A stretch of 48,576 nucleotides of DNA from Bdellovibrionota bacterium (lineage in GTDB: Bacteria; Bdellovibrionota_C; UBA2361). This document shows, piece by piece, positions 8,437 to 28,785 of this stretch (its first letter is position 1; each line of letters opens with the position of its first letter). The position numbers and the translations under genes were made by a program. The notes beneath the pieces were generated by a model that was not told the DNA's origin, searched no databases, and saw nothing but the letters and a program-made list of their open reading frames with translations. Location of the stretch: NCBI GenBank assembly GCA_044352465.1, contig JBILDU010000009.1, forward strand, positions 1 to 48,576, in the 5' to 3' direction.

Positions 8437-8459
8437 AGAACGGGCTGGCCGGATTTTGA

Positions 8460-8502: not shown

Positions 8503-8695
8503 ACCTCCGGAAACATCGACTGAATCTGGGGCTGTTTTCGAAATCGACTAGCCCGCCGGGTTGTGCCATAGTGCGCTCGTGTCGTGCCGGGGGCGTTGTT
8601 CTCAGCGGAAAGCGATCGAAGCATGGGCAGACGAGCCCATGATACAAGAAAATAGGGACACTTCCGCCCCGCGACTCGTGGTAAGAAATTGGCGG

Positions 8696-8711
8696 ACCGA
8701 ACGCTCGTTTG
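8696..8711. promoter_or_regulatory. Putative PaaR (TetR-family) operator
   Basis: CGAACGCTCGTTTG (8698-8711) fits CNAACGNNCGTTNG. ACCGAACGCTCGTT (8696-8709) is a 9/10 match to ACCGA-N4-TCGGT. Both consensuses are recalled from memory. The site lies just 5' of the GGAGG RBS at 8717-8721. Confidence 0.5.
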
Positions 8712-8727
8712 TCCGCGGAGGTAAGGT

Positions 8728-9933
8728 ATGCTCGCTGAAAATATCTTTGGTGCACCTATGAACGACGTCGAGTTTAGTGTTCTCGAACCGAAAGACACCC
8801 GCCAACTTGAGCCAACATGCCCGATCGATGTGTGGGTATATAAGTACACTGACCAGACGACCGGCTGGACCTTCAGCATCGGCACCCACGGCGAACCCCA
8901 TTCGAATAAACTCTCCCTCGGAGGTTTCCGTATCGCACCGGCGAATCGGGTGAGTATGCCCGGATACAGCAACGATCGCGAGGCGATCGGTCTCGCCATC
9001 GGCATGGAGGAAAAGGTCTACTGGTCGCGCCTCATCACCGTTGGCGGTCCGATCGGCATTAAAAACCTGAACCGCGTCGTAGGCGGCAAGTGTGTATTAA
9101 TGCCAACCCCAGGGGCGCGGGTGGGCGAACCACAAGACTTCGCGTTGCTCGATTTTGCGATCGCTTGTTTCCGCCATTTCGAAGAGACCTCAGGGGTCCT
9201 CATCACCACCGGCCAAGACCTCGGTCACGGCATGATGTCGGATGGAAAGACCCCCTCGCTCGGATATCTGAACGCGCACTTCCACGGTAGCATTCTTTCC
9301 GATACCTCTCAGCCCACCGCCGAGGGGAATTTCTACATGGTTCGCGGTGCGTTAAGGGGCCTCGGCCTCGCACTCAAGGACTCGCGCCTCGGCCTTATCG
9401 GATGCGGCAACATTGGGCGCCACTTACTGAGCCGCTTTATGGCAGACGGGGCTGAATGTGTGGTCGTTGAGGGCAACCCAAGCCGTGTCGCCGAACTGAA
9501 AGCGCTCGGGGTAAAAGTCTACTCCCCCGAGGAGAAGGCGCAGTTTCTCGCCGAGCCGATCGATGCGCTCAGCCTGAACGCTAACGGCGGCTCACTCGAT
9601 ATGACTTCGATCGACCTCATTTGTAAAAACCCCCGACTCAAATTCGTCGGCGGGTGTGAAAATTTGGTCATGCCCGACCCCCACGGAGCGACCGTTCTTA
9701 AAGAAGCGCGGAAAATATACTGCCACACCGAGCTGTGCGGCATGATGGGATACCTCACCGCGGTCGAGGAGTATCTCTCAAAGAGAGAGGGCGTGACCTA
9801 CGACATGAAGAGCATGTTTAAGGCGGCCGAAAAACTCGAGGAGGCAGGATTCAAAGCGACCCAGCACCTCATCGAGAAGAGCTATACCCTCAGTTTCGAG
9901 GATGCGATGCGGGCCGTTTATAAGGCGTCGTAG
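8728..9933 (+). CDS. Glu/Leu/Phe/Val dehydrogenase family protein (divergent; candidate phenylalanine dehydrogenase)
   Basis: Motif equivalents LGGFR, GMEEK, VGGKCV (catalytic Lys), TTGQDLG, PTAEG, Rossmann GCGNIG and GGCEN. GGAGG RBS 6 nt before the ATG. Confidence 0.75.
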   Translation: MLAENIFGAPMNDVEFSVLEPKDTRQLEPTCPIDVWVYKYTDQTTGWTFSIGTHGEPHSNKLSLGGFRIAPANRVSMPGYSNDREAIGLAIGMEEKVYWSRLITVGGPIGIKNLNRVVGGKCVLMPTPGARVGEPQDFALLDFAIACFRHFEETSGVLITTGQDLGHGMMSDGKTPSLGYLNAHFHGSILSDTSQPTAEGNFYMVRGALRGLGLALKDSRLGLIGCGNIGRHLLSRFMADGAECVVVEGNPSRVAELKALGVKVYSPEEKAQFLAEPIDALSLNANGGSLDMTSIDLICKNPRLKFVGGCENLVMPDPHGATVLKEARKIYCHTELCGMMGYLTAVEEYLSKREGVTYDMKSMFKAAEKLEEAGFKATQHLIEKSYTLSFEDAMRAVYKAS

Positions 9934-10197
9934 CCGTCTTTGGTATCCCGACCACGCAGTTTTTCTACCTGAGAGTCGGCCGGGGGGCCGCCTGCCCGTT
10001 TTTTGTCTGCTTTGCCTTTGGACCCCATTCGACTGGCTTCGACCGGCGCTCGGTGTCCTTACCCACGGCGGAAGAGGCACGATGATTGATGAAAATACTC
10101 AACTACTTACCTTTGGGCAGGCTGCGAGGGGCCATTGAGGTGTGGCGTGAAAACGTGATTAAATAGAGGAAGATTCAGTTCATTAAGGAATCGACCT

Positions 10198-11136
10198 ATG
10201 GACGACGCGGTCAAAGTGCAGGAATTCGAGGCGCGCATTGCGCAGGGTGAATCGATCGAACCAAAAGATTGGATGCCCGAGCGATTCCGCAAACAACTCA
10301 TCCGCATGATCTCGCAACACGCACACTCCGAGATCGTTGGGATGTTACCGGAAGGGAACTGGATCACCCGCGCCCCCTCGCTTCGCCGGAAAATGGTGTT
10401 GCTGGCCAAGGTTCAAGACGAGGCCGGACACGGGCTGTATCTTTATTGTGCGGCCGAGACGCTCGGTGCTGATAGAAGCGAGCTCATCGATGACCTCCTC
10501 TCGGGCAAGGCGAAGTACTCCAGCATATTCAATTACCCCACCCTCTCGTGGGCTGATATGGGGGTAATCGGATGGTTTGTTGACGGTGCGGCGATCGTCA
10601 ACCAAACAACGCTCGCGAAAACCTCGTACGGACCGTATGCCCGCGCCATGCTGCGGATCTGCAAAGAAGAGAACTTCCACAAGCGGCAAGGATTCGAAAG
10701 CGTCGCCACTCTCGCCCGTGGGACCCCCGCTCAAAAGGCGATGGTACAGGATGCGGTGAATCGTTGGTGGTGGCCTTCGCTCATGATGTTCGGGCCAAAC
10801 GATAAGGACTCACCGAACTCTCAAGAGCTTCTGAAATGGAAGGTTAAACGTCGCTCGAACGATGAACTGAGACAACGGTTCATCGATCTCACGGTCCCCC
10901 AGGTTCGCGCCGTCGGGCTAACCATCCCTGACCCCGATCTGAAATTCAATGCGGAGACGGGACACTGGGAATTCGGTCAGATTAATTGGGATGAGTTCAA
11001 CGCGGTTATTAACGGCAACGGGCCGTGCAACCGCGAACGTCTGCGGGCACGCCGCAAAGCACACGAGGACGGGGCGTGGGTCCGCGCAGCAGCCGCGGCG
11101 TATGCGGAGAGGTCTTCCGCCCGCTCAGCCGCTTAA
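10198..11136 (+). CDS. paaA: Phenylacetyl-CoA 1,2-epoxidase subunit A
   Basis: [52 protein letters not shown] and CKEENFH (di-iron ligands). Confidence 0.97.
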
Positions 11137-11160
11137 GTTCGTACTCCGCAAAGGTACACG

Positions 11161-11463
11161 ATGAGCCAAAAGACAAACGATGTGAGCCAAGGTCCACTCT
11201 GGGAGGTTTTTGTCCAGAACGACCCGCCGAAACCCCACGAGCATGCGGGAAGTCTCCACGCCCCCGATGCCGAAATGGCGCTCCAAGCCGCGCGTGATGT
11301 TTACTCACGTCGAGGCGAGGTCAAAAGCCTCTGGGTGGTACCGGCAAGTGCGATTACCGCTTCGACGCCGAGCGAAAATGGTTCTTTCTTTGATCCGTCG
11401 AACGACAAGGTGTATCGCCATCCCCTCTTTTACAAAGTCCCTCGCGGGATGAAGGGTTTTTAG
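11161..11463 (+). CDS. paaB: Phenylacetyl-CoA epoxidase subunit B
   Basis: PLWEVFV, HAGSLHAPDAEMAL..ARDVYSRRGE, SLWVV and KVYRHP. Confidence 0.96.
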   Translation: MSQKTNDVSQGPLWEVFVQNDPPKPHEHAGSLHAPDAEMALQAARDVYSRRGEVKSLWVVPASAITASTPSENGSFFDPSNDKVYRHPLFYKVPRGMKGF

Positions 11464-11537
11464 CTTTGCAGTAACCTCTGGCGTGCGCCGGTTGCCCTGC
11501 GCCCCTGATAACGGCTGATTTTGAGAGCGTCTCACCG

Positions 11538-12383
11538 ATGGACACCGAAAATGAACTCGAGGTAAATCTCGACCCGATTGAGAGCGACGCGAAGCCGAAA
11601 ACAAACCCAGCGGCGCACCTCTCCCCCGAGATTCAACGCGCCCTATTTGAATACATCGTGAGACTCGGCGACGATCGCCTCATCCTCGGGCACCGACTCT
11701 CCGAGTGGTGTGGCCACGCTCCGATCCTCGAAGAGGATATCGCCCTGGCCAACATGGCACTCGACCTCATCGGGCAAGCCAGCGCGTTCTTAGAACTGGC
11801 CGGTCGAATCGAGGGAGCCGGCCGCTCCGAGGACGACCTCGCCTACTTTAGGGAAGCGGTGGAGTTTCGAAACCTTCTTCTGCTGGAGCAGCCCCGCGGC
11901 GACTTCGCCTACACAATCTTACGCCAGTTTTTCTTCGCCGCGTTGAGCCTCCCCATGCTCGAGACCCTCGGAAAGAGCGCGCTTCCTGAGCTTGCGGCGC
12001 TCGCGGCCAAATCTCTGAAAGAAAGTCGCTATCATCTCCGCCACAGCGCCGAATGGGTGCGTCGACTCGGCCTCGGCACAGAGGAGAGCCGCGCCCGACT
12101 CCAAACCGCCCTCGAGGAACTGTGGATCTTCACCGCGGAGATGTTCGACACCGATCAGGTTGAGACCACCCTGGCTGCCGAGAGATTTATCGGAACAAGC
12201 GCGGACTGTCGGACCCCCTGGGAAGCAATGGTGCTCCCTCTCCTCAAAGAAGCTGGCCTCACTATCCCCACCGACGCCCCTGCCGCGCGGGGAGGTCGCA
12301 CCGGAAAGCACAGCGAATTCTTGGGATTCCTACTCGCTGAGATGCAGATCGTGGCGCGTTCTCACCCCGGAGCCACATGGTAA
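11538..12383 (+). CDS. paaC: Phenylacetyl-CoA epoxidase subunit C
   Basis: LGDDRLILGHRLSEWCGHAPILEEDIALAN, KESRYH, RLGLGTEES and C-terminal HPGATW. Confidence 0.96.
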   Translation: MDTENELEVNLDPIESDAKPKTNPAAHLSPEIQRALFEYIVRLGDDRLILGHRLSEWCGHAPILEEDIALANMALDLIGQASAFLELAGRIEGAGRSEDDLAYFREAVEFRNLLLLEQPRGDFAYTILRQFFFAALSLPMLETLGKSALPELAALAAKSLKESRYHLRHSAEWVRRLGLGTEESRARLQTALEELWIFTAEMFDTDQVETTLAAERFIGTSADCRTPWEAMVLPLLKEAGLTIPTDAPAARGGRTGKHSEFLGFLLAEMQIVARSHPGATW

Positions 12384-12868
12384 CAGCATCGATCGACCCG
12401 AAATTGCTCCCTTTTCTCCTTGAGGTAAAGGACCCCGAGATCCCTGTCTTGAACGTGATCGAGATGGGCATCGTCCGGAGCGCCGAGCTCACCGGTGACA
12501 CGGCTCGGGTGACCATAACTCCGACCTACTCGGGGTGTCCGGCGATGCACGAAATCGAGACCGATATCAGACGGGGCCTTGAGAAGCACGGTATCAAAGC
12601 GGTGACGGTCGAGCTTGTGCACTCTCCGGCCTGGACGACCGACTGGCTCTCCATCGAAGCAAAAGAAAAACTGCGTGCCTACGGGATAGCTCCCCCAGGT
12701 GCCCCTGCCGATGCGCTGGTGTCGATCGGGACCCGCGAGTCCACCCCGTGCCCTTATTGCGGCTCGAAAAACACCTCGCTCCGCAGCGAATTCGGCTCTA
12801 CCGCGTGCAAAAGCCTCCACTTTTGTAACGGCTGTCGACAACCTTTTGAACAGTTCAAGGCGTTTTGA
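12377..12868 (+). CDS. paaD: Phenylacetyl-CoA epoxidase subunit D
   Basis: VKDPEIP, TPTYSGCPAM, WTTDW, YGIAPP, CPYCGS, FGSTACK and C..CRQPFEQFK. Overlaps the end of paaC. Confidence 0.96.
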   Translation: MVTASIDPKLLPFLLEVKDPEIPVLNVIEMGIVRSAELTGDTARVTITPTYSGCPAMHEIETDIRRGLEKHGIKAVTVELVHSPAWTTDWLSIEAKEKLRAYGIAPPGAPADALVSIGTRESTPCPYCGSKNTSLRSEFGSTACKSLHFCNGCRQPFEQFKAF

Positions 12869-13095
12869 TTCCCTTACGGGCCTAAGCTTGCACCTGCCAG
12901 CTCCCCCCGAACCCGTTGAATTCATTCAGAGGCCCTCAGAAAATCCCCAGCAGAGCGCATTTTTATGCATCAGACCTGGGCCAAACTTACATAACCATTT
13001 CTTAGAGATTATACTCCTCTTCGGAAGTGTGTTTGAAACGCGCCGCAGCGCGACAAAGTGACCTACCGAGAGTACCGTCGTTTACGGAGTAAGTT

Positions 13096-13605
13096 ATGGG
13101 TTCGAATGTGCGTCGATCGATAGTATTAGCAACCATCTTGTCTTTCGTGTGTGTCGAGGCAGCTCTCGCTCAATCATCCCCCACCTGTCCAAGCCTCCCG
13201 TCATTGCAGAAGCGGATCGATCGACAGCAGGGAAAGGTCGACAAAGCGGAGCAAAAGCTCGCGAAGTACGACACGGCGACTGACAACCGGAAACTCAGCT
13301 ATGAAAATCGCGCCGCTAATTTTCAGGCCCGGCGACAGGAGTACATCGAGAACTACCAAGAGAATTGCTACCTCGGTGGATTTTTAGGTGGTGGCAACGT
13401 TGGAAAGTGTATCTCCAAGAATAAGGCGCTCGCGGACAAGATGAAGTTTCAAAGAGACAGAGTTCTCACTTTACTACAAAGCTTCACAACGAAACGAGCA
13501 GCTGGTCGAGCGCCGCTCGTAACGCGGGTGAATCAAGAGACGCAACGGCTCAACGATCTGCAGCAGCAATATAACACCTGCTCAGGAAGTGGTAACGCTC
13601 CGTAA
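13096..13605 (+). CDS. Secreted basic helical hypothetical protein
   Basis: Signal peptide ending ALA-Q, K/R/Q-rich coiled-coil character, four Cys in the mature part, GGAG RBS. Confidence 0.75.
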   Translation: MGSNVRRSIVLATILSFVCVEAALAQSSPTCPSLPSLQKRIDRQQGKVDKAEQKLAKYDTATDNRKLSYENRAANFQARRQEYIENYQENCYLGGFLGGGNVGKCISKNKALADKMKFQRDRVLTLLQSFTTKRAAGRAPLVTRVNQETQRLNDLQQQYNTCSGSGNAP

Positions 13606-13623
13606 GGACCGGGCTCTTGTAGT

Positions 13624-13665
13624 CCCGCGCGAGACTTGGCGATGCGATCGTCGAGCTCTCGCGGG
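13624..13665. other. Intergenic GC-rich stem-loop (~18 bp, with G-U pairs)
   Basis: CCCGCGCGAGACTTGGCGAT-GCG-ATCGTCGAGCTCTCGCGGG, with outer pairing CTCTTG/CAAGAG. Confidence 0.4.
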
Positions 13666-13746
13666 GAGGTCACCGCTTCGAGCAAGAGGGATTTCGAGAT
13701 TAGAGGTGACTGTACTCAAGAGACTCTACGGATGGAGTAAGGTTGT

Positions 13747-16020
13747 ATGAATATTCGAGCCCTCCTAAGCCTCCTCCTTATCGGATTTTTCAGTGTTCTG
13801 CCGTTCTCAGTCTCAGCCCAGACGATTCCCGTCCTAGAAACGTATCGGCTCCTAAAAATCAGCGGCTCGCTCCGACTTGCCTGCTATGTGCAGGGCACAA
13901 ACCTCCTTATCGGCCGTACGATCCCGTCGACGAACTCCGGAACCGGACTTCCGATGGACATCTTTGAGGTGCGCGGAGCCGATTGGGTTCGCAATTTACG
14001 GGCAGTAGAGGCGCGGGAGTTGCGCGAGCTCCGCACGGCACTCAATCGGGCAACCGGTTCGCGGCGAGCGCGTCTCCAACAAGAGCTTCGGGTCGCCACC
14101 CGCAATTATCAGAAGGTCAACAACCAGACGAACGCCGTACTCGGGCCACCGTGCCTCAACCACCATGCCTGGGTCGTGGGGATGACCGCTCCGGCACCAA
14201 CCCCCACCCTGACCCCAACGCCCACCGACGACCCCGACCAGGACCTCCTCGATCTCGATGAGAATATATTCCGGCCAACGATCCGCGACCCGCACGGGCT
14301 GGCTCTTATCTCCCCTCGGCAAGATACCACGCTCTTATTCGTCGATTCCTTTAGCGGCAACGACACAAGCAATAACGGGTTTACCGATGATGCCCCGTTT
14401 CGAACCGTTGCCCGAGCACTTCAGTATCTCAACACGATCGCGGTGAGCGGTCGGGTGAACGCACAAGTTTTCCTCAAAAGGGGCGGTACCTACGCCATCG
14501 GTGAACTCATCCTGAGCGGTAAAGACCATGAGAACCCGCTCCTGTTCGGAGCGTACGGAGATTTGACCGCCCCGCGTCCCCGGATGTCTCCAGTTAATAT
14601 CACCGGAAACGTCTCCAACTTGGCTTTCTCCGACCTCCTCTTCGAGGCACCGATCCCTGGTTCCGGCACGGCCTTTAACGTGAGCGGCATGGTCGTCAAC
14701 CTCCTTATCCAAAACTCACGGATCGTAGGATTCCGCAACGGAATCGTCGTTGAGGGCAGCAACCAGTCACGTGACATTTCTATCTATCGCAATATCATCA
14801 CCGAGCTCTCGAGCTTGGAGGGCCCTTCCTACGGGGTAAGACTCGACAATATCTTTCGGGCGATCGTCTCGAGCAACGTGCTTGACCGGATCGGCGAAAG
14901 CACCACTCCCGGGTTCGTTCCGGCTGAGGAAAGCACGGCGATTTCGGTGACGAACTCACTCATCGGGGGTGTCGTTCGAGGCAACCAAATATTCCGGTCC
15001 CCAACCGCGATCACCTTAGTGAGCAACTCCGAGGCGGCGATGGCACACGTCCACGCCAACGCGATAGTCCGAAGTGGCGTCGCTGGCACGATCGAGAGCC
15101 GTGGGGTGTATCTCGGAGAAAACGTGGTTATCGAGGGGACCGATGTTGGACCGCTCAATCGAGGCCGCGGATTCCACATTCGAAACGGCATGGCCGTGCA
15201 GGTCTACCGCAACATCGTGGCCAACACGGTGAGTTCGACCGTTCCCGAAGATTATGCACTGAAGTTTAGCGGTGCGGCCCACTTCGGCTTCTACGACGTG
15301 GCCGGTCTCGATATCTATAACGCCGCAGATCTTCACGTCGGCGGTTTTAGCTGGGATTCGGACAAGACACCGAACACCCTCGCCTTTAAAGATTCGGCGA
15401 TTCAAAACAATCGGAGCGACGGGGCAAATGAGCCGCTCGTGACCTTGCAGGGGCGTCCCCAATCCGTTGTCAAAAGCGCCTTTCGTCGCCTGCGCCTCAA
15501 CAACTCAACCGATCCCAGCGAGCGGTTCTATCGCATCGTCGAGGAGGGCTCGATCACCCGAGTCAACCGGCTACAACGACGGACGCTCTGGCGGTGGTAT
15601 TGTTACGGACTCGAGCTCGTGGTCTCTCCGAATCTCCGGAAGCAAACGAACAACTGGTACTCTGGATTTGAGATACATCAAGGCGTCGTCAACACTGCCA
15701 GCCGCTCGATTAGACCCAATCGCTTCCGCTTTAATCGCTGTTTGAATGGTTACCGCACCGGCCCGTACACCGCTCAGCAACGGGTCAATCGAACGAAGTG
15801 GGTAGAGTACGCGGATGACCAAGGTACGGTTCATGCACCGACAACCTACCAAGATCCAAGCCGCACCCCCGGTCAAATGCTCGCAGCGAATTCGTTGCCG
15901 GGAGCCTCGCTCGATCAGTTCATCGCTTATGTGACCACGCGCGATCGAGGCAACTTTGATTACCGGTTTATTGGCCAACGGCTCTCGCAGTGGATCCGCG
16001 TCGGTTTCAATAGGCAGTAG
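13747..16020 (+). CDS. Secreted right-handed parallel beta-helix protein, paralog 1
   Basis: Signal peptide (VSA-Q), Pro/Thr linker, FVDS.SGND.NNG...APFRT, LKRGGTY, GAYG..PRP, and repeated I.I.N/YRN.I beta-helix rungs. Confidence 0.75.
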   Translation: MNIRALLSLLLIGFFSVLPFSVSAQTIPVLETYRLLKISGSLRLACYVQGTNLLIGRTIPSTNSGTGLPMDIFEVRGADWVRNLRAVEARELRELRTALNRATGSRRARLQQELRVATRNYQKVNNQTNAVLGPPCLNHHAWVVGMTAPAPTPTLTPTPTDDPDQDLLDLDENIFRPTIRDPHGLALISPRQDTTLLFVDSFSGNDTSNNGFTDDAPFRTVARALQYLNTIAVSGRVNAQVFLKRGGTYAIGELILSGKDHENPLLFGAYGDLTAPRPRMSPVNITGNVSNLAFSDLLFEAPIPGSGTAFNVSGMVVNLLIQNSRIVGFRNGIVVEGSNQSRDISIYRNIITELSSLEGPSYGVRLDNIFRAIVSSNVLDRIGESTTPGFVPAEESTAISVTNSLIGGVVRGNQIFRSPTAITLVSNSEAAMAHVHANAIVRSGVAGTIESRGVYLGENVVIEGTDVGPLNRGRGFHIRNGMAVQVYRNIVANTVSSTVPEDYALKFSGAAHFGFYDVAGLDIYNAADLHVGGFSWDSDKTPNTLAFKDSAIQNNRSDGANEPLVTLQGRPQSVVKSAFRRLRLNNSTDPSERFYRIVEEGSITRVNRLQRRTLWRWYCYGLELVVSPNLRKQTNNWYSGFEIHQGVVNTASRSIRPNRFRFNRCLNGYRTGPYTAQQRVNRTKWVEYADDQGTVHAPTTYQDPSRTPGQMLAANSLPGASLDQFIAYVTTRDRGNFDYRFIGQRLSQWIRVGFNRQ
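14185..14226 (+). repeat. Pro/Thr-rich low-complexity linker (TAPAPTPTLTPTPT)
   Basis: Degenerate ACC/CC repeats seen in the sequence and translation. Confidence 0.7.
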
Positions 16021-16255
16021 CTACGGCGGAACTACATCTTCGGTGACACTGGGGAGGTGCCTTCGCCCTTTCTCCTGGCACAGCACTTGCAGCTACCCTG
16101 ATGGGATAGTTTGACGTTCTTTTCAGCGCTACCGTTACCGATACGGGTGAGGGCTTTCTAGGCTCGGGGAACCACCTGTTGCTACGCTACATCTTTTGAT
16201 GAGGGAGGGTGTTGCGCTCCGGGTTGCGCAGCGTTTCTCTCGAGAGGCCGCGGGA

Positions 16256-16318
16256 ACTAGTCCTTCGACCAATAAGTTTTTTCACTCCCGCGGAGTGAAA
16301 AACTAACTCAGGACTAGT
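16256..16318. other. Long intergenic stem-loop
   Basis: Outer stem ACTAGTCCT/AGGACTAGT (9 bp, perfect). Inner stem TTTTTCACTCC-CGC-GGAGTGAAAAA (11 bp, perfect). Confidence 0.55.
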
Positions 16319-16505
16319 GGTGAGCATAAATTCTATTACCTTGCAGGTGAAAGAATTTAATGGTCGAACCACTAGCCGGAAAGCTATTGCGGTAGTCGCG
16401 CTTTCCTCCAGCAAACAAAACGCAGTCAAGCTTATCCAGCTGCTCCTCGCTGCTCCGGAGGCGATGGGCGGCCACGGGGAAGGGTTTGGGTGACTTTGGG
16501 TTTGT

Positions 16506-19181: not shown

Positions 19182-19187
19182 GTACTT

Positions 19188-19252
19188 GGGGTGGACTCAC
19201 ACCGATCCTCGAAAGCGCAGGGGAATCCGGCTCTTCGAATTGGTGCCACCCC
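19188..19252. terminator. Long imperfect hairpin between convergent genes
   Basis: Nested stems GGGGTGG/CCACCCC, CACCGAT/ATTGGTG and TCGAA/TTCGA fill most of the 81-bp gap. Confidence 0.4.
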
Positions 19253-19262
19253 GCCCGGCCCA

Positions 19263-20468: not shown

Positions 20469-20470
20469 CG

Positions 20471-22567
20471 TTACATCTCCATTAACTGATTCATCCGCGC
20501 CGCAATCTCTTCAACGTCGGGCACCACCGCGGCCATAAGATTCACGTTGTGCGGGATCGGCAGATCGGGCACCGCGATACGATCCACCGGCGCGTCGAGA
20601 GAGAAGAAGGCTTCCTTCGCAACGACTGCGGCGACCTCAGCACCAAACCCCGCCGTCATCCCGTCCTCGTGGACGATCAGGCACCGGCGGGTCTTTCGCA
20701 CCGACTCAAGAACAGCGGCGCGATCCCACGGAGCGATGGTGCGCAGATCGAGCACCTCGATACCATCCCCGAGCGTATCACACGCCTCCTCCACCCGCTC
20801 CACCATTGCCCCCCACGTGACCACGGTGAGGCGATCTCCAGCCCGAACTATCCGGGCTTGGCCGAACGGCACGACGTAATCATCCCCCGGATAGGGCCGA
20901 CGGGCCCAGGGGGTGTCGAGCATGTGCCGGTGTTCAAAAAATATGGTGGGATCGTTACTCCGCAGCGCCGATCGCAGGAGTCCCACCGCATCTTCCGCGT
21001 TCGACGGCATCGCGACGCGCCATCCGATCGCGTGAGCGAAGACAACCTCACCACTCACCGAGTGCCAGGGGTCGCCGCACTTAAAGAATCCTCCAGGAAT
21101 ACGCACGACGATCGGTGCGGCGAAGCGGTTTGCGGTACGCCACCGAATCGTCCCACAGTTATTAAGCTGCTCGGTCGCGGGGTCAGCGTATTTGCGGAAC
21201 TGAATCTCCGCCACCGGTAAGAGCCCGGCGAGCGCCATCCCGACCGACCGTCCGATGATGCCCTCCTCTGAGAGGCTCGTATCGAACACCCGTGCTTCGC
21301 CAAACATCTCCTGTAGACCAAGAGTCGCCGCATGCACTCCCCCTTTCGGCCCGACATCCTCCCCGAAGACCAGCACTCGCGGATTCGCCCTCAGCTCAAC
21401 CTCAAGGGTTCGCCGAATCGCCGTAATCATGTTGATGCGGGTCGGCTCAGGACTCGGCGTCGTTGTACTCTTGGGGAAAGCAAATCCGTGCGCGAGCACG
21501 CCGCCCGTCTGCTGAAGATCGACCGCGCCATTTCCATCGAGCTCTGAGTACACGTACCGACCTATTTCGGCTGGATCCGGCTCGGGGCGATTTGTTGCAC
21601 CGAGGAGCGCCGCTTCGATATCGCGCGCCACGACTGCATTCACACCGTCCCATTCATCTTGGGAGAGGAGCTGCGGGACCAGAAATTTTTGAAGCTTTGG
21701 CAGCGGATCGCGCGATTCCTCCCCTTTGATAACCTCAGGAGACTTATATGCTTGGGTATCTTGACCGGAGTGACCGGAAAGACGGGGGACAGTCAAGCGA
21801 ATCAAGGCTGGGCCGTTGCCACTCCGGACATGCGCCACCGTCTCCGCAAAAAGGGCCGCCGCTCCCGCTGGGTCGGTACCGTCACCATCTCTAATAAAGA
21901 GATTCTTAAACGCGGCGAGATTCTGCGCGATATTACATCCCGGGGTCTGAAACTCGCCCGGGACCGAGATGCCGTACCCATTGTCCTCGACGTAAAAAAG
22001 GAGGGGCAACTTTAACGTCGTCGCCATAGTCAGCGCCGACCAAAAGCCGTTGGTTGCTACGGCTGCATCACCACTCAGCACGCATGCGATCGCCCCTTCG
22101 TACGACCGATCTTTGAGCACATCGCGGTGGTAGGTAATCGCTTGGGCCCACCCGGCGCACGGGGTGAACTGGGAGCCGACATCGCCTGACATCGGGAAAA
22201 CGGTGGGACTGCCGTTCCCCGGCAAGTTACACACCACTCCGATATCGCGCCCATCACTAAAACCACCGGAGCGCGCCATCGGACTTGCAAACGCATCCTC
22301 AAGCGACAAGCCGAGGCTGAGCAGCATCGGACGGGAGCGGTAGTAGGCACCCACACCGTCGTGGGGATGATTGAGGAACGAACCGAGGATTATCTGGGCG
22401 ACGTCGTGCCCCCGCGCCGAGAACTGGTAGAGCACCTTTTTCTCAGGGACGAGCTTTGTCTCCTCGATGTGATCGAGCGCGCGCGAGGCGAGGGTCAGAT
22501 AGGCAACTCGCCGCCAATCGATTCCCCGAGTTGCCTCCTCCTCCTGCCCTATCTTCGTGGTGCCCAT
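20471..22567 (-). CDS. Fused E1 alpha/beta 2-oxoacid dehydrogenase (branched-chain-like, TPP-dependent)
   Basis: TPP motif GDAA..EDNGYGIS, RLSGHS, FGEDVG..GGV, RVFDTSLSE, AEIQF and EVLDLRTI.PWD. Start moved to the ATG at 22567, which follows AAGAAGG. Confidence 0.9.
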   Translation of the reverse strand: MGTTKIGQEEEATRGIDWRRVAYLTLASRALDHIEETKLVPEKKVLYQFSARGHDVAQIILGSFLNHPHDGVGAYYRSRPMLLSLGLSLEDAFASPMARSGGFSDGRDIGVVCNLPGNGSPTVFPMSGDVGSQFTPCAGWAQAITYHRDVLKDRSYEGAIACVLSGDAAVATNGFWSALTMATTLKLPLLFYVEDNGYGISVPGEFQTPGCNIAQNLAAFKNLFIRDGDGTDPAGAAALFAETVAHVRSGNGPALIRLTVPRLSGHSGQDTQAYKSPEVIKGEESRDPLPKLQKFLVPQLLSQDEWDGVNAVVARDIEAALLGATNRPEPDPAEIGRYVYSELDGNGAVDLQQTGGVLAHGFAFPKSTTTPSPEPTRINMITAIRRTLEVELRANPRVLVFGEDVGPKGGVHAATLGLQEMFGEARVFDTSLSEEGIIGRSVGMALAGLLPVAEIQFRKYADPATEQLNNCGTIRWRTANRFAAPIVVRIPGGFFKCGDPWHSVSGEVVFAHAIGWRVAMPSNAEDAVGLLRSALRSNDPTIFFEHRHMLDTPWARRPYPGDDYVVPFGQARIVRAGDRLTVVTWGAMVERVEEACDTLGDGIEVLDLRTIAPWDRAAVLESVRKTRRCLIVHEDGMTAGFGAEVAAVVAKEAFFSLDAPVDRIAVPDLPIPHNVNLMAAVVPDVEEIAARMNQLMEM

Positions 22568-22833
22568 GGCTCTGTACCTTCTTTGTTGGCGCTCCGTTCG
22601 TCCATGCCGCGCCCTCGCGGGGGAGTATGCTCCGCCTCTCGCTGGGCTGCAAGAGCTCCCCACGGCAGTTTGTCTGTAGAATCGGGAGCTTGGGTGATCT
22701 TCGAACACCCCTCACACCAAAGCCCGGGTCGGTCACGGCGCACTCTCAGAGCAGGCTCCCCTAGTGGCGGATTTCTTTCATTTTTTTCGGAGTTTCGCTA
22801 AAGTAGCGCCGCTTTTGTTCCAAGGGCCGGTCT

Positions 22834-23625
22834 ATGTCAGCGAAAACGATCGTTTTTGAAGTCGAGCGGGGCGTTGGTCGGGTCACCCTGAACCGCCCTG
22901 AGGTTTTGAATAGCTTCGACCGAGCGATGGCACTGGAGCTTCAAGCCGCGCTCCATGAGGCGGCCAGGAGCGATTCGGTGCGAGCGATTCTTCTTACCGG
23001 CAACGGGCGGGCGTTCTGCGCTGGGCAGGATCTCGCTGAGGTGGCACCCCGACCGGACGGCTCGCTTCCCCCACTCGATCCGATCGTCCGTGAGTGTTAC
23101 AACCCGATCATCGAGTCTATCCGCACCACGGAGAAGCCGTTTATCGCCGCCGTCAACGGCGTTGCCGCCGGAGCTGGGGCCAACCTTGCCCTCGCCTGCG
23201 ATATCGTCATCGCTGCCAAAGATGCCGCGTTTATCCAGTCTTTTTCAAAGGTCGGGCTCATCCCCGATAGTGGTGGAACCTTCATGTTGCCGCGGCTGAT
23301 CGGGCTCGCCCGAGCGACCGCGCTCATGTTTCTAGGGGAAAAGATTTCGGCCGAAAAGGCGGTCGAGATGGGGATGATTTACAAAGCGGTGGAGAGCGCG
23401 GAGCTCCTCCCCACAGCTCTTGCCCTCGCCGAAGTGCTCGCGACCCAACCGACGCTTGGCCTCGGGCTCACGAAACGCGCACTCAACGCCTCGGCGCATT
23501 TGGACCTCAAAGCCCAACTGACTCTCGAGGAGGAGCTGCAAGGGGTAGCGGGACGTTCGGCCGATTATCGTGCCGGAGTCGTGGCGTTCCTTGAAAAAAA
23601 GAAGCCTGTATTCGTAGGGAAGTAA
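22834..23625 (+). CDS. paaG: 2-(1,2-epoxy-1,2-dihydrophenyl)acetyl-CoA isomerase
   Basis: Crotonase fold: LNRPEVLNSF, RAFCAGQDL, YNPII, NGVAAGAGANLALACD and GLIPDSGGT (PaaG-type Asp). Confidence 0.92.
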   Translation: MSAKTIVFEVERGVGRVTLNRPEVLNSFDRAMALELQAALHEAARSDSVRAILLTGNGRAFCAGQDLAEVAPRPDGSLPPLDPIVRECYNPIIESIRTTEKPFIAAVNGVAAGAGANLALACDIVIAAKDAAFIQSFSKVGLIPDSGGTFMLPRLIGLARATALMFLGEKISAEKAVEMGMIYKAVESAELLPTALALAEVLATQPTLGLGLTKRALNASAHLDLKAQLTLEEELQGVAGRSADYRAGVVAFLEKKKPVFVGK

Positions 23626-23627
23626 GT

Positions 23628-24827
23628 ATGTCAGGTCGCGCTTCACTCGGAGTTATCGGTGTCCTCGGTGCGGGAGCGATGGGCTCCGGTATCGCTCAAG
23701 TGGCGGCAACGAGCGGGCACAAAGTCATTCTGTTCGACACCAACGGCGACGCGCTTCTACGCGCCCAAGCGGGTATCACCAAGAATCTCCGCCGTGAAAT
23801 CGAAAAAGGCCGCCTCGACGAGAAGCAAGCTCAAACGATTCAGGAGCGTATCGTGTTTCTCGATGGAAACCGCGCCGATCCACTCAAACCCCTCGAATCA
23901 GCCCATCTCATCATCGAAGCGGTGATTGAAAATCTGGATATCAAACAAGAGCTCTTTCGGCGGCTCGAGGCGGTCGTCTCCGCCGATTGTCTGCTCGCGA
24001 CCAACACCTCCTCGCTTTCGGTTGCTTCGATCGCTTCCGCATGTAAGATGCCGGAGCGAGTTCTCGGCATTCACTTCTTTAATCCCGTTCCGGCGATGCC
24101 GCTGGTTGAAATTATCCCGGGCGTTGCGACGAAGCCGCAGACGCTCGACACCGCCACGGCGCTCATGAAGAGCTGGGGGAAGCTCACCGTCCAAGCGAAA
24201 GATACCCCCGGTTTTATCGTGAATCGAATCGCCCGACCGTTTTATGGGGAGTCGATCCGACTTCTCGAAGAGGGTCTCGCCGATGTAGCCACGATCGACT
24301 GGGCGCTCAAAGAGATCGGTGGCTTTCGGATGGGACCGTTCGAGCTGATGGATTTCATCGGCAACGACATTAACTACACCGTCACTCAGACGGTGTATGA
24401 GGCGTTTTTTTTCGACCCACGTTTCAAGCCCTCGCTCACTCAGAAGCGCCTCGTGGAGGCCCGTTTTCTCGGAAGAAAAACGGGGCGGGGCTACTACGAT
24501 TATCGCCCCGGGGCGGAAACCCCTGTCCCGGTCAAGGACACCGCTCTGGGAGAAACGATCGTTCGGCGGGTCGTCGCGATGCTCATCAACGAAGCGATCG
24601 ACGCAGTGTTCATGCGCATCGCCTCGGTCGAAGATATTGAGATAGCGATGACGAAGGGGGTGAACTATCCGCGCGGACTGCTCGCCTGGGGGGAGGAGAT
24701 CGGACTCGCCAACATTTTAGAGACCCTCGCAGGTCTACAGGCGGAGTACGGCGAAGATCGGTATCGGCCGAATCCCCTCCTCCGGCGGATGGTGCGCTCA
24801 AACGAATCGTTTCACTTCAAAAAGTAA
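23628..24827 (+). CDS. paaH: 3-hydroxyadipyl-CoA dehydrogenase
   Basis: GAGAMGSGIA, IEAVIE, TNTSSLS, GIHFFNP, PGFIVNR, GPFELMD, and a second C-terminal dimerisation half-domain. paa context. Confidence 0.9.
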   Translation: MSGRASLGVIGVLGAGAMGSGIAQVAATSGHKVILFDTNGDALLRAQAGITKNLRREIEKGRLDEKQAQTIQERIVFLDGNRADPLKPLESAHLIIEAVIENLDIKQELFRRLEAVVSADCLLATNTSSLSVASIASACKMPERVLGIHFFNPVPAMPLVEIIPGVATKPQTLDTATALMKSWGKLTVQAKDTPGFIVNRIARPFYGESIRLLEEGLADVATIDWALKEIGGFRMGPFELMDFIGNDINYTVTQTVYEAFFFDPRFKPSLTQKRLVEARFLGRKTGRGYYDYRPGAETPVPVKDTALGETIVRRVVAMLINEAIDAVFMRIASVEDIEIAMTKGVNYPRGLLAWGEEIGLANILETLAGLQAEYGEDRYRPNPLLRRMVRSNESFHFKK

Positions 24828-24839
24828 GGATTCAGCGAG

Positions 24840-26051
24840 ATGAACGAAGCTTTTATCGTCGATGGAGTGCGGACCCCGATAGGCAATCATTGCGGTGCGC
24901 TCGCTCAGGTGCGCCCCGATGACCTTGCGGCCCACGCGATCCGAGCGCTGATGGAGCGCCATCCGGCCGTCCCCAGGGAAGCCATTGAGGAGGTCGTCTT
25001 CGGCTCCGCGAATCAAGCGGGGGAAGACAACCGCAACGTCGCGCGGATGGCGGCGCTGCTGGCAGGGCTGCCCCTCACGGTACCAGGAATTACGGTCAAC
25101 CGCCTCTGTGCTTCGGGATTGAGCGCGATCCTCGACGCGGGACGGCTGGTCAGTTCCGGCGATGCCGAGCTCGCTATCGCTGGTGGCGTTGAGAGCATGA
25201 CTCGCGCCCCGTTCGTCCTTGCAAAAGCAGCGACCCCATTTTCCCGCACTGCGGATATCTTCGATACAAGCATCGGCTGGCGTTTCGTCAATCCCCACAT
25301 GAAAGAGCTCTACGGCATCGACTCAATGGGCCAAACCGCTGAGAACGTGGCGGAGAAGTTCTCGATAAACCGGACTGATCAAGATGCCTTCGCCCTCCGC
25401 TCTCAACAAAAAGCAGCCGCGGCGCGCGAACGGGGGCGTTTTGCACGCGAGATAGTGCCGGTCGTTATCCCCGGCGCAAAGGGCACGACGACCTCCATTG
25501 AGCACGACGAGTTTATCCGGCCAAACACAACCCTCGAAACGCTCCAGAAATTGAAGCCTGCTTTCCGCACCGATGGAAAGGGCTCGGTTACCGCAGGTAA
25601 CGCTTCAGGGATTAACGACGGGGCGTGTGCGGTGCTGGTTGCGTCAACCACCGGCATGAAGCGACACAATCTCCGCCCACTTGCCCGTATCGTCGCTTCC
25701 GCCGCAATCGGGGTGGAACCTCGGTATATGGGAATCGGTCCAGTGCAAGCAACCGAGCGGGCGCTGGCCCGCGCCAAGCTCCGCCTGACCGATATGAATA
25801 TCATCGAACTCAACGAGGCCTTCGCGGCCCAGAGTCTTGCGTGTACTCGGGCCCTGGGGATCGCAGATGATGACACCCGGGTGAATCCAAACGGGGGGGC
25901 TATCGCGCTCGGCCATCCTCTCGGGATGAGCGGTGCCCGTCTGGCTCTCACCGCGGCGCTGGAGCTCCACGAGCGGAGCGAGCGCTACGCACTCTGCACG
26001 ATGTGTGTCGGGGTAGGTCAAGGGGTCGCGGCGATTATTGAACGGGTATAG
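24840..26051 (+). CDS. paaJ: 3-oxoadipyl-CoA/3-oxo-5,6-dehydrosuberyl-CoA thiolase (PaaJ/PcaF)
   Basis: ANQAGEDNRNVARM, NRLCASG, IGWRFVNP, NEAF, GHPLG and CVGVGQG. Confidence 0.92.
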   Translation: MNEAFIVDGVRTPIGNHCGALAQVRPDDLAAHAIRALMERHPAVPREAIEEVVFGSANQAGEDNRNVARMAALLAGLPLTVPGITVNRLCASGLSAILDAGRLVSSGDAELAIAGGVESMTRAPFVLAKAATPFSRTADIFDTSIGWRFVNPHMKELYGIDSMGQTAENVAEKFSINRTDQDAFALRSQQKAAAARERGRFAREIVPVVIPGAKGTTTSIEHDEFIRPNTTLETLQKLKPAFRTDGKGSVTAGNASGINDGACAVLVASTTGMKRHNLRPLARIVASAAIGVEPRYMGIGPVQATERALARAKLRLTDMNIIELNEAFAAQSLACTRALGIADDDTRVNPNGGAIALGHPLGMSGARLALTAALELHERSERYALCTMCVGVGQGVAAIIERV

Positions 26052-26092
26052 AGTAGTAGGACGTTTAAACTGAACGACTCATTCAAATAGCT

Positions 26093-26689
26093 ATGGCGAA
26101 TATCTTCGAATTTCAGGGGTTCCGTCCGGTCGTTCATCCGAGTGCCTTTGTTCACCCAAACGCGACCGTCACCGGCAACGTCATCATCGGCCGGGATGTG
26201 TACGTTGGTCCAGGGGCGGCGATCCGCGGAGACTGGGGTGCCATCGTTATCGAGGACGGATGCAACGTGCAGGAGAACTGCACGATCCACATGTTTCCTG
26301 GAGTAACTGTACGCCTCAAGGAGGCGGCTCATATCGGACACGGGGCGATCATTCATGGCGCTACAATCGGTCGAAACACCCTCATCGGCATGAACGCCGT
26401 TATCATGGATAACGCCGAGGTGGGTGACGAATGTATCGTCGGGGCGCTGTGTTTTATTCCAGCCGAGGAGAAGATCCCGCATCGAAAGATCGTCGTTGGG
26501 AATCCGGCGAAGATCGTCAAGGATGTTACCGATGAGCGACTCGCCTGGAAGACGGAGGGGACGAAGCTCTATCAAGCACTCCCGGCGGAGCTCTCTGCAT
26601 CTCTGAGGCCGTGCGAGCCACTCCGCGAGGTACCAGCCGAACGCCCAACCCCGATAGCGAGCTATAAAACCTGGCAGGAAACCAAATAG
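26093..26689 (+). CDS. paaY: PaaY hexapeptide-repeat (gamma-carbonic anhydrase-like) thioesterase
   Basis: RPVVHPSAFVHP, IRGDWG, NVQENC, GHGAIIHG and WKTEGT..YQ.L. Confidence 0.88.
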   Translation: MANIFEFQGFRPVVHPSAFVHPNATVTGNVIIGRDVYVGPGAAIRGDWGAIVIEDGCNVQENCTIHMFPGVTVRLKEAAHIGHGAIIHGATIGRNTLIGMNAVIMDNAEVGDECIVGALCFIPAEEKIPHRKIVVGNPAKIVKDVTDERLAWKTEGTKLYQALPAELSASLRPCEPLREVPAERPTPIASYKTWQETK

Positions 26690-26745
26690 TGTCGCGTACC
26701 GCTCAAACCTGTTTGGCCCAACTATCTTTTCATCAAGGGTGAACT

Positions 26746-28785
26746 ATGCGTCTGCAAAGCTTTTCAAATGGCGAATGGGTGAGCGGGATCGGCAAAGGCA
26801 CCGATCTTTTTCATGCGGTCACCGGCGAAAAAATCGCGGAGGCATCGAGCGACGGGCTCGATTTTAAGGCCATGCTCGCCTACGCACGGAACGTCGGGGG
26901 GCCGAATCTTCGACGTCTCACGTTCCATGATCGGGCCCGGATGCTGAAGGCCCTTGCAAAGTATCTGACCGATCGGAAAGAGGAGTTCTACGCCGTCTCA
27001 GCCGCTACCGGTGCTACAAAAACCGACTCGTGGATCGACATCGAGGGCGGCATCGGCACCTTCTACGTCTATTCCAGTAAGGGCCGTCGGGAATTCCCGA
27101 ACGAGACTTTTTACGTCGACGGCGCCGTGGAAAACCTCTCGAAGGGGGGCACCTTTATCGGGCGTCATATCTGTGTCCCGCTCGAGGGGGTCGCGATTCA
27201 TATCAACGCCTTTAACTTCCCGTGTTGGGGGATGCTTGAGAAGCTCGCCACAAACTTTCTCGCCGGCGTTCCGGCGATCGTCAAACCGGCAACCGTGACC
27301 GCATACCTCACCGAGAAAATGGTGCGGGCGATTATCGAATCGCAGATCTTGCCGGCTGGCGCGCTGCAACTTATCTGCGGCAGCGCGGGCGACCTCCTCG
27401 ACCACGTCATCTGTCAGGATGTGGTTACCTTCACCGGCTCAGCGGCAACCGGAAAGAAACTGAAGAATCATCCGGCGATCATCGAAAATGCGGTTCGGTT
27501 CAACATGGAAGCCGATTCGCTTAATTGCTCCATTCTTGGCCCGGATGCCCGCCCCGGGACCGACGAGTTCGACCTTTTCATCAAAGAGGTGGCCCGAGAG
27601 ATGACCGTCAAGTCGGGTCAGAAATGCACCGCGATCCGCCGAACTATCGTCCCTGCTGATATGGCCAGTGATGTTGTCGCAGCGCTGCGGAAGCGGCTTA
27701 CCACCATTACCCTCGGCGATCCTGCGGTGGATGGCGTTCGCATGGGACCCCTCGCCGGGCGAAGCCAGGTGGGCGAAGTACGCGCAGCGCTTGCCGAGCT
27801 CCGCAAAGGTGCGGAGCTCGTGTACGGCGAGCCAGATAATTTCGAGGTCATCGGCGGAGATAAGGATAAGGGCGCCTTTTTTCCGGCCCTCCTACTCCTG
27901 GCGAACAAGCCGCTCCAGAACCGCCAGGTTCACGACATCGAAGTCTTCGGTCCAGTCAGCACGGTGATACCATACCACTCAGTGGAGGAGGCAATGGAAT
28001 TAGCCCGGCTCGGCAGAGGGAGCCTCGTCGGATCGCTCTTCACGAACGACAACAAGGTAGCCCGCGAGGTTGTCCTGGGCGCTGCACCTTGGCATGGCCG
28101 GATGGTCATTCTCAACCGCCATAGTGCCAAGGAATCGACCGGTCACGGCTCGCCGATGCCCCACCTCGTGCACGGTGGTCCCGGTAGAGCTGGCGGTGGG
28201 GAGGAGATGGGCGGCATTCGAGGGGTGCTCCATTACATGCAACGAACCGCGCTCCAAGGCTCACCGGAAACCTTGACCGCGATATGCCACGAGTGGATGA
28301 AAGGGGCCAATCAGCCAAGTGACCGGATCCATCCGTTTCGTAAGTTCTTCGACGAGCTGGAGATCGGGGAAACCCTCGTCACCCATCGGCGCACCATTAC
28401 TGAGGCCGATATTGTCAATTTCGCTGGCATCAGCGGCGATCACTTCTATGCCCACATGGATGAAATCGCGGCGCGCGAATCTATCTTCGAGAAACGGGTG
28501 GCTCACGGTTACTTCGTCATTGCTGCCGCAGCAGGCCTATTCGTCGATCCCGCCCCTGGCCCGGTGCTAGCGAATTACGGACTTGAAAACCTCCGGTTCG
28601 TGAAACCGGTGGGTATAGGCGATACCATCTACGTGAAGCTTACATGCAAGCAAAAGACCGCTAAAGACACCCCCGCCGGCTCGATTCCGCAAGGTGTCGT
28701 TGCCTGGGATGTTGAGGTCTTAAACCAGCTCAATGAGGCGGTGGCTCTCTACACGATTTTGACCTTGGTGCGGCGCCAAAGCTAA
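26746..28785 (+). CDS. paaZ: Bifunctional oxepin-CoA hydrolase/aldehyde dehydrogenase
   Basis: ALDH domain ([27 protein letters not shown]) fused to a MaoC domain ([19 protein letters not shown]). Confidence 0.97.

Follow-up and report, generated by a model that had tools for sequence, protein, structure and literature searches.

A candidate phenylalanine catabolic module that would enter the paa pathway without the ligase PaaK in a Bdellovibrionota genome

The stretch of DNA analysed here (the window) comprises 48,576 nucleotides (nt) of a metagenome-assembled genome (MAG) of a Bdellovibrionota bacterium from a lake (GCA_044352465.1, contig JBILDU010000009.1). Between positions 8728 and 28785, it encodes the core of the paa pathway of phenylacetyl-CoA degradation, a 401-amino acid (aa) protein here called DH401, and two components of a 2-oxoacid dehydrogenase complex, i.e. 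a fused E1α/β and an E2. Judging from its gene content and from related loci, this region probably serves phenylalanine catabolism and feeds the paa pathway by a route in which neither free phenylacetate nor the phenylacetate-CoA ligase PaaK takes part. In textbooks, the paa pathway starts with PaaK, which is ATP-dependent. The route through phenylacetaldehyde, phenylacetate, and PaaK costs the conversion of ATP to AMP, whereas a 2-oxoacid dehydrogenase keeps the thioester and saves the cost of the ligase.

In the proposed pathway, DH401 would oxidatively deaminate L-phenylalanine to phenylpyruvate with NAD(P)+. The fused E1 would decarboxylate phenylpyruvate on thiamine diphosphate and reductively acylate the lipoyl arm of the adjacent E2, which would move the phenylacetyl group to CoA, the arm being reoxidized by a lipoamide dehydrogenase (E3) from an lpd-lipB-E1-E2 operon elsewhere in the genome. 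The remaining steps would be those of known enzyme families, with PaaABC(D) epoxidizing phenylacetyl-CoA and PaaG, PaaZ, PaaJ, and PaaH leading to acetyl-CoA and succinyl-CoA. Such a system had been suggested in a preliminary description of the window made from its letters. All the genes named there are intact at the positions listed in Table 1, the E1/E2 pair is indeed divergent from paaG across a 266-nt intergenic region, and profile scans agree that the window contains no paaK, no thiamine diphosphate-dependent decarboxylase, and no separate phenylacetaldehyde dehydrogenase.

Results

Orthologues of the E1 fusion are linked to paa genes

A lack of linkage between E1 homologues and paa genes had been named beforehand as one outcome that would refute the proposed pathway. 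A scan of one genome per species yielded 585 relatives of the E1 of the window, the best 80 of which (59-88% identity) were kept; their loci come from Alpha- and Gammaproteobacteria, Bdellovibrionota, and other groups. Genes in these loci were counted by tblastn with the window proteins, requiring at least half of the query length and E ≤ 1e-10. PaaA or PaaZ is encoded in 45 of the 80 loci, and in 39/53 when only loci of at least 15 kb are considered, whereas E2 directly follows E1 in 75/80. As a control, we used 78 loci of the other type of E1 fusion, which in the same genome is part of the lpd-lipB-E1-E2 operon on contig C99. None of these contains paaA, paaC, paaG, or paaZ (0/78), and lpd is present in 41. 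Among long loci, paa genes are thus near E1 in 39/53 for the type found in the window versus 0/39 for the other type. This scoring is conservative because it relies on PaaA, PaaC, and PaaZ only, so that a Bdellovibrionota locus with paaG, paaH, paaJ, and paaY and no paaA within reach (L061) was counted as unlinked.

A phylogeny of E1 fusions points the same way. In a quick FastTree analysis of 166 E1 fusions, of which the deep split alone is relied on, all 61 paa-linked rows fall on one side (94 rows), and the C99 type and a third type encoded on contig C161 form the other (72 rows, support 100). The linkage recurs in Alpha- and Gammaproteobacteria, Gemmatimonadota, and Bdellovibrionota.

In two samples, only paa-bearing genomes encode the E1, often with no PaaK found

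We determined the distribution of PaaA (TIGR02156), of the paa-type E1 (at least 60% identity), and of DH401 (at least 45% identity) in 121 genomes of the phylum to which the window belongs. PaaA is encoded in 27 of them. The E1 was found in 26 of these 27 and in 0/94 PaaA-negative genomes, and the 17 genomes with DH401 are all PaaA-positive. No PaaK (TIGR02155) scored over the cut-off in any of the 121 genomes. There were four sub-threshold matches, all in PaaA-negative genomes. The 27 PaaA-positive genomes, including 18 with a completeness of at least 90%, have no match at E ≤ 1e-60. In the genome of the window (94.9% complete), there is no TIGR02155 match at E ≤ 0.001, and tblastn with two PaaK proteins returned nothing at E ≤ 1e-5. 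The lack of paaK noted for the window in the preliminary description therefore extends to these searches of its genome and of the PaaA-positive genomes of the phylum.

A second sample consisted of 151 Sphingomonadales genomes, 49 of which are PaaA-positive. The E1 is present in 11, all of them with PaaA (11/11). PaaK was not found in six of these 11 genomes, compared with 5/38 PaaA-positive genomes without E1 (Fisher p 0.009, a significance that is overstated since relatives are not independent). In five of the six genomes with E1 in which PaaK was not found, E1 lies 4-5.5 kb from paaA. Ten further genomes were reached via linked loci, and here PaaK scored over the cut-off in four and was not found in six, three of which are isolates. 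Taken together, the E1 is confined to paa-bearing genomes in both samples, and its presence often, although not always, coincides with the lack of PaaK.

Two unrelated enzymes precede the E1 step in related loci

In a Sphingomonas locus (L058), the genes paaA-paaB-paaC-paaE-transaminase-E1-E2 lie on one strand. In a Marinobacter locus (L032), a Na-dependent transporter and a transaminase are followed, divergently, by Lrp-E1-E2. The transaminases of L058 and L032 score above the cut-off of NF006719, a model for aromatic amino-acid transaminases. When the 80 E1 loci were surveyed by tblastn, we found such a transaminase in 23, an Lrp/AsnC regulator in 48, PaaE in 42, and PaaK in seven, each of which is absent from the control loci (0/78). 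The Lrp/AsnC regulator is divergent and upstream of E1 in these 48 orthologous loci.

The neighborhood of DH401 was surveyed in the same way in 80 loci. The gene paaA is downstream of DH401 in 55/80 (31/36 among loci of at least 15 kb), a crotonase gene lies between the two in 57, and E1 is present in 19. Directly upstream, on the same strand, there is an HPPD-like gene in 31 loci and an HgmA-like gene in 33. In Gemmatimonadota and Bdellovibrionota, DH401 thus appears to stand in place of the aromatic transaminase of Proteobacteria, i.e. the step feeding E1 would have been filled twice independently. That two unrelated enzymes predicted to make arylpyruvates from aromatic amino acids occupy the same place beside E1 is the most telling indirect evidence for phenylpyruvate as the E1 substrate.

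A separate observation concerns many Gemmatimonadota (L098, 7359-11167; L107, 7658-11173; 29-31 more), in which an HPPD-like gene, a gene for a 396-397-aa protein, and DH401 lie on one strand upstream of paa. The 396-397-aa protein matches only HgmA_N, and weakly, which makes it a candidate divergent homogentisate dioxygenase.

The E1/E2 pair is intact and its E1 is divergent

The E1 of the window combines the E1_dh (PF00676, 98.5 bits), Transket_pyr (PF02779, 103.9 bits), and Transketolase_C (PF02780, 111.6 bits) domains, all over their cut-offs. The ATG at 22567, which gives a protein of 698 aa, is the likely start because homologues are 682-704 aa long. E2 starts 2 nt beyond the E1 stop codon. 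E2 proteins are recognized by a lipoyl domain whose lysine lies in a DK pair, by a peripheral subunit-binding domain, and by the motif DHRxxDG in the catalytic domain; the translation of the E2 gene displays TDKV and DHRVLDG. In E1, the thiamine diphosphate/Mg motif is GDG-x(25-30)-NN. The corresponding region of the window protein reads GDA-x28-EDNGYGIS, and a regular expression for the motif, too leaky for a comparison of the clades, matched 64/95 paa-type and 10/68 control sequences.

The E1 shares 35 and 29% identity with the other two E1 fusions of the genome (on contigs C99 and C161, respectively). No NCBIfam equivalog scores over its cut-off, homologues are annotated in public records as '2-oxoisovalerate dehydrogenase E1 component' or 'pyruvate dehydrogenase', and the closest solved β subunits are those of branched-chain 2-oxoacid dehydrogenase (BCKDH) and pyruvate dehydrogenase (PDH). 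The α half diverges strongly. It scores 98 bits against E1_dh, compared with ∼240 for the paralogues, and has a single match among α subunits of the PDB (E 3e-26). Such a very divergent α half fits a new specificity. The E2-E1 pair adjoins a gene for a Ser/Thr protein kinase in the closest two Bdellovibrionota loci (L116, 13002-13967; L061, 13801-14763).

DH401 is predicted to be a divergent ELFV-fold amino-acid dehydrogenase

The product of the gene at 8728 had been described as a Leu/Phe/Val-type dehydrogenase, which is borne out by fold, profile, and motifs but not by Pfam. DH401 scores 16.7 bits against PF00208, under the cut-off of 23.4, and has no match to PF02812. Among 30 members of its family, PF02812 matches none and PF00208 matches 20 at E ≤ 0.01, and relatives are labelled 'hypothetical protein' in public records. 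A profile built from the 30 members, on the other hand, matches leucine dehydrogenases (LeuDH) of the PDB with E 1.6e-9, in the NAD domain only. An AlphaFold2 model of DH401 (pLDDT 91.2) submitted to Foldseek has as best match the phenylalanine dehydrogenase (PheDH) of Rhodococcus (1bw9/1c1d; E 6.5e-18, TM 0.74 over ∼375 columns), followed by leucine and tryptophan dehydrogenases, with E values ranging from 6.5e-18 to 1e-14. The ESM Atlas groups DH401 with ELFV clusters on both features and structure, and the structure neighbors have TM 0.70-0.72.

An hhalign comparison with the canonical ELFV enzyme of the same genome, encoded on contig C90, gave a probability of 95.7% over 289 columns. The aligned pairs (DH401/C90) are SLGGFRI/ALGGCRM, GMEEK/GMTYK, VGGKCVL/GGGKSVI, TTGQDLG/ITAEDMG, GCGNIG/GVGHVG, and GGCENL/GAANNIL, which brings the motifs GGxR, GMxxK, GGK, D, GxGxxG, and N of DH401 into register with the canonical enzyme. 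Residues K96, K121, D164, N312, and G225-x-G227-x-x-G230 are invariant in the 30 members and align with motifs of both the C90 enzyme and LeuDH 6acf. In LeuDH and PheDH, such motifs contain the catalytic and the substrate-carboxylate lysine, the aspartate, the asparagine, and the GxGxxG nucleotide loop. A small residue is expected in PheDH at the site of LeuDH A113, where PheDH has a glycine (G124). Its counterpart in DH401 is the invariant G162, and those of LeuDH V291 and V294 are Y342 and A345. This pattern may hint at Phe specificity, although it is suggestive only.

DH401 shares the two-domain fold of Rhodococcus PheDH and of LeuDH with only 18-23% identity. It differs from them by an insertion of ∼13 residues between the two lysines, by an N-terminal extension, and by failing both Pfam ELFV models. 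Its family is small and separate: a search of 1.84 billion representatives gave 45 clusters at E ≤ 1e-30, many being fragments, and then, after a gap in score, canonical enzymes at ≤69 bits. The fold, the profile comparisons, and the alignment of catalytic motifs all argue that DH401 is a divergent relative of phenylalanine and leucine dehydrogenases. Considering in addition its gene neighborhood, we infer that it converts Phe, and perhaps Tyr, to the arylpyruvate.

Other 2-oxoacid and aromatic enzymes of the genome

The preliminary description had asked whether the E1/E2 pair might be the only such complex of the genome. It is not: C99 carries the lpd-lipB-E1fusion-E2 operon, C161 an orphan E1 fusion, and C4/C9 a split PDH. 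The third E1α/β fusion (C161:19848-22028, 726 aa) has no E2 or lpd nearby and adjoins dapC/dapE and a phosphatidylserine decarboxylase gene. A weak E1_dh match on C56 is Dxs and was dropped as an E1. The number of E2 genes, three, is a lower bound, as an 843-aa ORF on C69 reaches the contig end. The only lpd over the cut-off (561.6 bits) is part of the C99 operon, the second match (361.7 bits) being below it. The E3 would therefore have to be borrowed, in line with the earlier suggestion of a housekeeping E3 encoded outside the cluster, and we infer that lipoamide dehydrogenase is shared between the C99 operon and the paa-linked E1/E2.

No POR/IOR-type oxidoreductase was found in the genome, and the only protein with a TPP_enzyme_N domain is MenD (C7:96624-98192). 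Accordingly, neither a decarboxylase of the IpdC/PPDC type nor an acetolactate synthase was found, and lack of the latter suggests branched-chain amino-acid auxotrophy, as would suit a bacterium that depends on protein or prey. On C144, HPPD, HmgA, and FAH form a homogentisate route. Within the limits of a 94.9% complete MAG, E1/E2 would be the only recognizable source of phenylacetyl-CoA in this genome.

Organization of the locus

The window is contig C60 of a MAG of 3.13 Mb in 170 contigs. The paaABCD genes (10198-12868) and the paaGHJ(Y)Z genes (22834-28785), all on the forward strand, lie on either side of the E1/E2 pair (Table 1). The core of the pathway, i.e. the PaaABC(D) epoxidase with PaaG, PaaZ, and PaaJ, is thus present in the window. 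PaaA, PaaB, PaaC, PaaD, PaaZ, and the thiolase pass their NCBIfam cut-offs, and PaaG, PaaH (TIGR02279), and PaaY are best matches slightly below theirs. No PaaF, PaaI, or regulator was found in the window.

Three open reading frames (ORFs) separate paaABCD from E2. They match no Pfam or NCBIfam family and have no homologue among 238 related loci, and the two large ones (757 and 891 aa) have in common an N-terminal 'I(K)GSLxLAC' stretch. They are probably an insertion outside the pathway. An Rfam scan of the window found nothing at gathering score, and no RNA data were listed over 19263-23625, all 20 runs (20/20) being DNA from lake/freshwater metagenomes. The flanks of the window encode valS, a MacAB/TolC-like efflux set, flagellar genes, and glycosyltransferases. 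The MacB-type ABC efflux set (1178-5461, reverse strand) comprises an FtsX/MacB permease, an ABC ATPase, an HlyD-family adaptor, and an outer-membrane efflux protein, and the flagellar basal-body/export genes (33425-40088, reverse strand) encode FliE, FliF, FliH, a FliI-type ATPase, FliJ, and rod proteins.

Table 1. Features of the candidate module, in window coordinates
Feature	Position	Strand	Basis
DH401, predicted divergent ELFV-fold amino-acid dehydrogenase	8728..9933	+	fold, profile, aligned motifs; 401 aa
paaA, 1,2-phenylacetyl-CoA epoxidase subunit A	10198..11136	+	TIGR02156, 526 bits (cut-off 280)
paaB	11161..11463	+	TIGR02157, 117.8 bits (cut-off 85.45)
paaC	11538..12383	+	TIGR02158, 300.5 bits (cut-off 133.35)
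paaD, C-terminal zinc ribbon	12377..12868	+	TIGR02159, 186.4 bits (cut-off 108.15); PF23451
Three ORFs (169, 757, 891 aa)	13096..19181	+	signal-peptide-like N-termini; split the paa cluster
E2 dihydrolipoyl acyltransferase	19263..20468	-	PF00364 lipoyl, PF02817 E3-binding, PF00198 catalytic domain
Fused E1α/β thiamine-diphosphate 2-oxoacid dehydrogenase, candidate phenylpyruvate-specific enzyme	20471..22567	-	PF00676 + PF02779 + PF02780 in a single 698-aa frame
Divergent E1/paaG intergenic region	22568..22833	.	between reverse-strand E1 and forward-strand paaG
paaG-like crotonase (1,2-epoxyphenylacetyl-CoA isomerase)	22834..23625	+	TIGR02280, 328.8 bits (just under cut-off 345.15)
paaH-like 3-hydroxyacyl-CoA dehydrogenase	23628..24827	+	NF006124, 535 (cut-off 508); TIGR02279, 492 (below 669)
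paaJ/pcaF 3-oxoadipyl-CoA thiolase	24840..26051	+	NF006551, 643 bits (cut-off 605)
paaY-like hexapeptide-repeat protein	26093..26689	+	TIGR02287, 231 bits (below cut-off 319.6)
paaZ, bifunctional oxepin-CoA hydrolase/aldehyde dehydrogenase	26746..28785	+	TIGR02278, 1023.9 bits (cut-off 562.8)

Discussion

Several observations weigh against a dedicated, ligase-free phenylalanine module. The substrates of E1/E2 and of DH401 are predictions from sequence and gene context, and the pocket of the divergent α half of E1 is unreadable from known enzymes. PaaK does occur within 7/80 E1 loci, and it scores over the cut-off in 5/11 E1-positive Sphingomonadales and in 4/10 genomes reached via linked loci. 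An unrelated acyl-CoA synthetase or CoA-transferase may act on phenylacetate, and in a MAG of 170 contigs that is 94.9% complete, absences are provisional. Fourteen of the 53 long E1 loci have no paa gene within 10 kb (e.g. Rhizobium and Marinobacter L032). In Gemmatimonadaceae, E1 lies between paaD and paaG with no E2 beside it, and five such genomes have three E2 genes each, which are 33-41% identical to the E2 of the window. A dedicated E2 thus does not accompany every such E1, and the E1 of these bacteria would use a housekeeping E2 or act differently.

No PaaE, the reductase that would supply the epoxidase with electrons, was found either. The best TIGR02160 match in the whole genome, on C104, scores 43.7 bits (cut-off 420.8) and contains an in-frame stop, and tblastn detected PaaE in 0/80 DH401 loci. 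NF041869, a model of a small 'PaaE' from haloarchaea, matches the zinc-ribbon C terminus of PaaD. Finally, the organization of the locus speaks only partly for a single unit. The cluster is divided by three unrelated ORFs for predicted secreted proteins, DH401 and paaA, whose co-transcription is putative, are separated by 264 nt, a look for a sigma-70 consensus in the divergent region 22568-22833 was negative, and a simple inverted-repeat search found no operator common to the upstream regions 8437-8727, 9934-10197, and 22568-22833.

Other readings of the E1/E2 pair have to be weighed against these data. It is unlikely that the pair acts on different or broader substrates (4-hydroxyphenylpyruvate, indolepyruvate, or aromatic together with branched-chain 2-oxoacids), phenylacetyl-CoA being one product or a minor one. 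Such a role would accommodate the unreadable pocket in the specificity-determining α half, the orthologues of the L032 type that are accompanied only by an aromatic transaminase, an Lrp regulator, and a Na-dependent transporter without paa genes, and the linkage of DH401 to HPPD- and HgmA-like genes of tyrosine catabolism. However, 4-hydroxyphenylpyruvate is already served by HPPD, HmgA, and FAH on C144, and the near-perfect co-occurrence of E1 with PaaA (26/27 versus 0/94; 11/11) argues that the product is used by Paa enzymes. We consider it improbable that the main feed is free phenylacetate, with E1/E2 as an auxiliary; the activating ligase or CoA-transferase would then have gone unnoticed, being encoded in the unassembled 5% of the genome or belonging to another family. 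The incompleteness of the MAG, the coexistence of PaaK and paa-type E1 in several Proteobacteria, and the retention of a PaaY-like thioesterase in the cluster are in its favor, but TIGR02155 is null both here (E ≤ 0.001) and in the 27 PaaA-positive genomes of the phylum (E ≤ 1e-60), and a chance loss everywhere is unlikely.

The Gemmatimonadaceae that keep E1 in a paa cluster without an adjacent E2 could be explained if E1 alone were a non-oxidative phenylpyruvate decarboxylase, yielding phenylacetaldehyde and then, through an aldehyde dehydrogenase, phenylacetate, since E1 components catalyze the decarboxylation half-reaction unaided. That route would nevertheless end in phenylacetate and need PaaK, for which the searches of this genome and of the phylum sample were negative, and an intact E2 directly follows E1 in the window and in 75/80 orthologous loci, which makes it highly improbable. 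Least probable of all is that E1/E2 is an ordinary BCKDH paralogue whose position among paa genes has no functional meaning. Although the public annotations of homologues and the closest solved β subunits (BCKDH/PDH) are compatible with this, the paa linkage recurs across four groups and was not seen with the control paralogue, both genome samples place the E1 in PaaA-positive members only, and the genome holds another E1 fusion in a full lpd-lipB-E1-E2 operon. A phenylalanine module that bypasses PaaK therefore remains the reading that we favor.

Comparison with known systems clarifies what would be new. The BCKDH complex (E1b of Pseudomonas putida, 1qs0/2bp7; Thermus thermophilus, 1um9) has the same E1(α/β)-E2-E3 architecture and chemistry. 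Unlike it, the paa-linked E1, which is outside the clade of the lpd-linked fusion of the genome (35% identity), has no lpd in its cluster, and its neighbors are paa genes together with an aromatic transaminase or a PheDH-like enzyme rather than branched-chain genes. The bkd operon carries an Lrp-type regulator, BkdR, and the divergent Lrp/AsnC gene upstream of E1 in 48/80 orthologous loci is a further likeness to BCKDH. A bypass of PaaK in Phaeobacter is reportedly catalyzed by indolepyruvate:ferredoxin oxidoreductase. That would be a different class of enzyme, dependent on ferredoxin, and no POR/IOR-type protein was found in the genome of the window. Phaeobacter inhibens is reported to have a direct, PaaK-independent conversion of phenylalanine via phenylpyruvate to phenylacetyl-CoA (PMC7497051), which, like the pathway proposed here, avoids free phenylacetate and PaaK.

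The closest likeness in terms of reaction is to PglB/PglC of the L-phenylglycine operon of Streptomyces pristinaespiralis, described as a 'pyruvate dehydrogenase-like complex' proposed to convert phenylpyruvate to phenylacetyl-CoA (PMC7089894). They are E1α/β proteins of the 2-oxoacid dehydrogenase family, and the likeness concerns the proposed reaction. In that description, PglB/PglC are biosynthetic (for an antibiotic precursor), split into α and β, and without an E2 in the operon, whereas the proteins of the window would be catabolic, with a fused E1 and its own E2 amid paa genes. With the classical paa pathway that includes PaaK (Escherichia coli, P. putida), the window has in common PaaABCD, PaaG, PaaH, PaaJ, PaaZ, and a PaaY-like protein, and differs in that PaaK and PaaE were not found. 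A search of the open-access full-text literature returned no catabolic paa-linked phenylpyruvate dehydrogenase complex and no description of the DH401 family, PglB/PglC and the Phaeobacter bypass being the sole precedents that it gave.

As a tentative extension that we regard as possible, the paa-bearing families of the phylum and many Gemmatimonadota might run the paa pathway only from amino acids. They would use a three-enzyme NAD-linked feeder consisting of a new clade of aromatic amino-acid dehydrogenases, perhaps serving both Phe and Tyr routes, and a dedicated arylpyruvate dehydrogenase complex, with PaaK dispensable and free phenylacetate not an intermediate. Many genomes that are paa-positive and PaaK-negative are now scored as incomplete for the pathway. 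If the proposed pathway is correct, ligase-free entry of Phe would be widespread, which would change the prediction of Phe catabolism from genomes, arylpyruvates would become a fourth substrate class of classical 2-oxoacid dehydrogenase complexes, and a function would be assigned to a family of ∼400-aa 'hypothetical proteins'. Metabolic engineers would also gain a way to phenylacetyl-CoA that saves ATP and yields NADH, and from phenylacetyl-CoA derive phenylglycine, tropones, and the side chains of penicillin G. For the bacterium of the window, in which no acetolactate synthase was found, such a feeder would fit the protein diet of an amino-acid-dependent organism.

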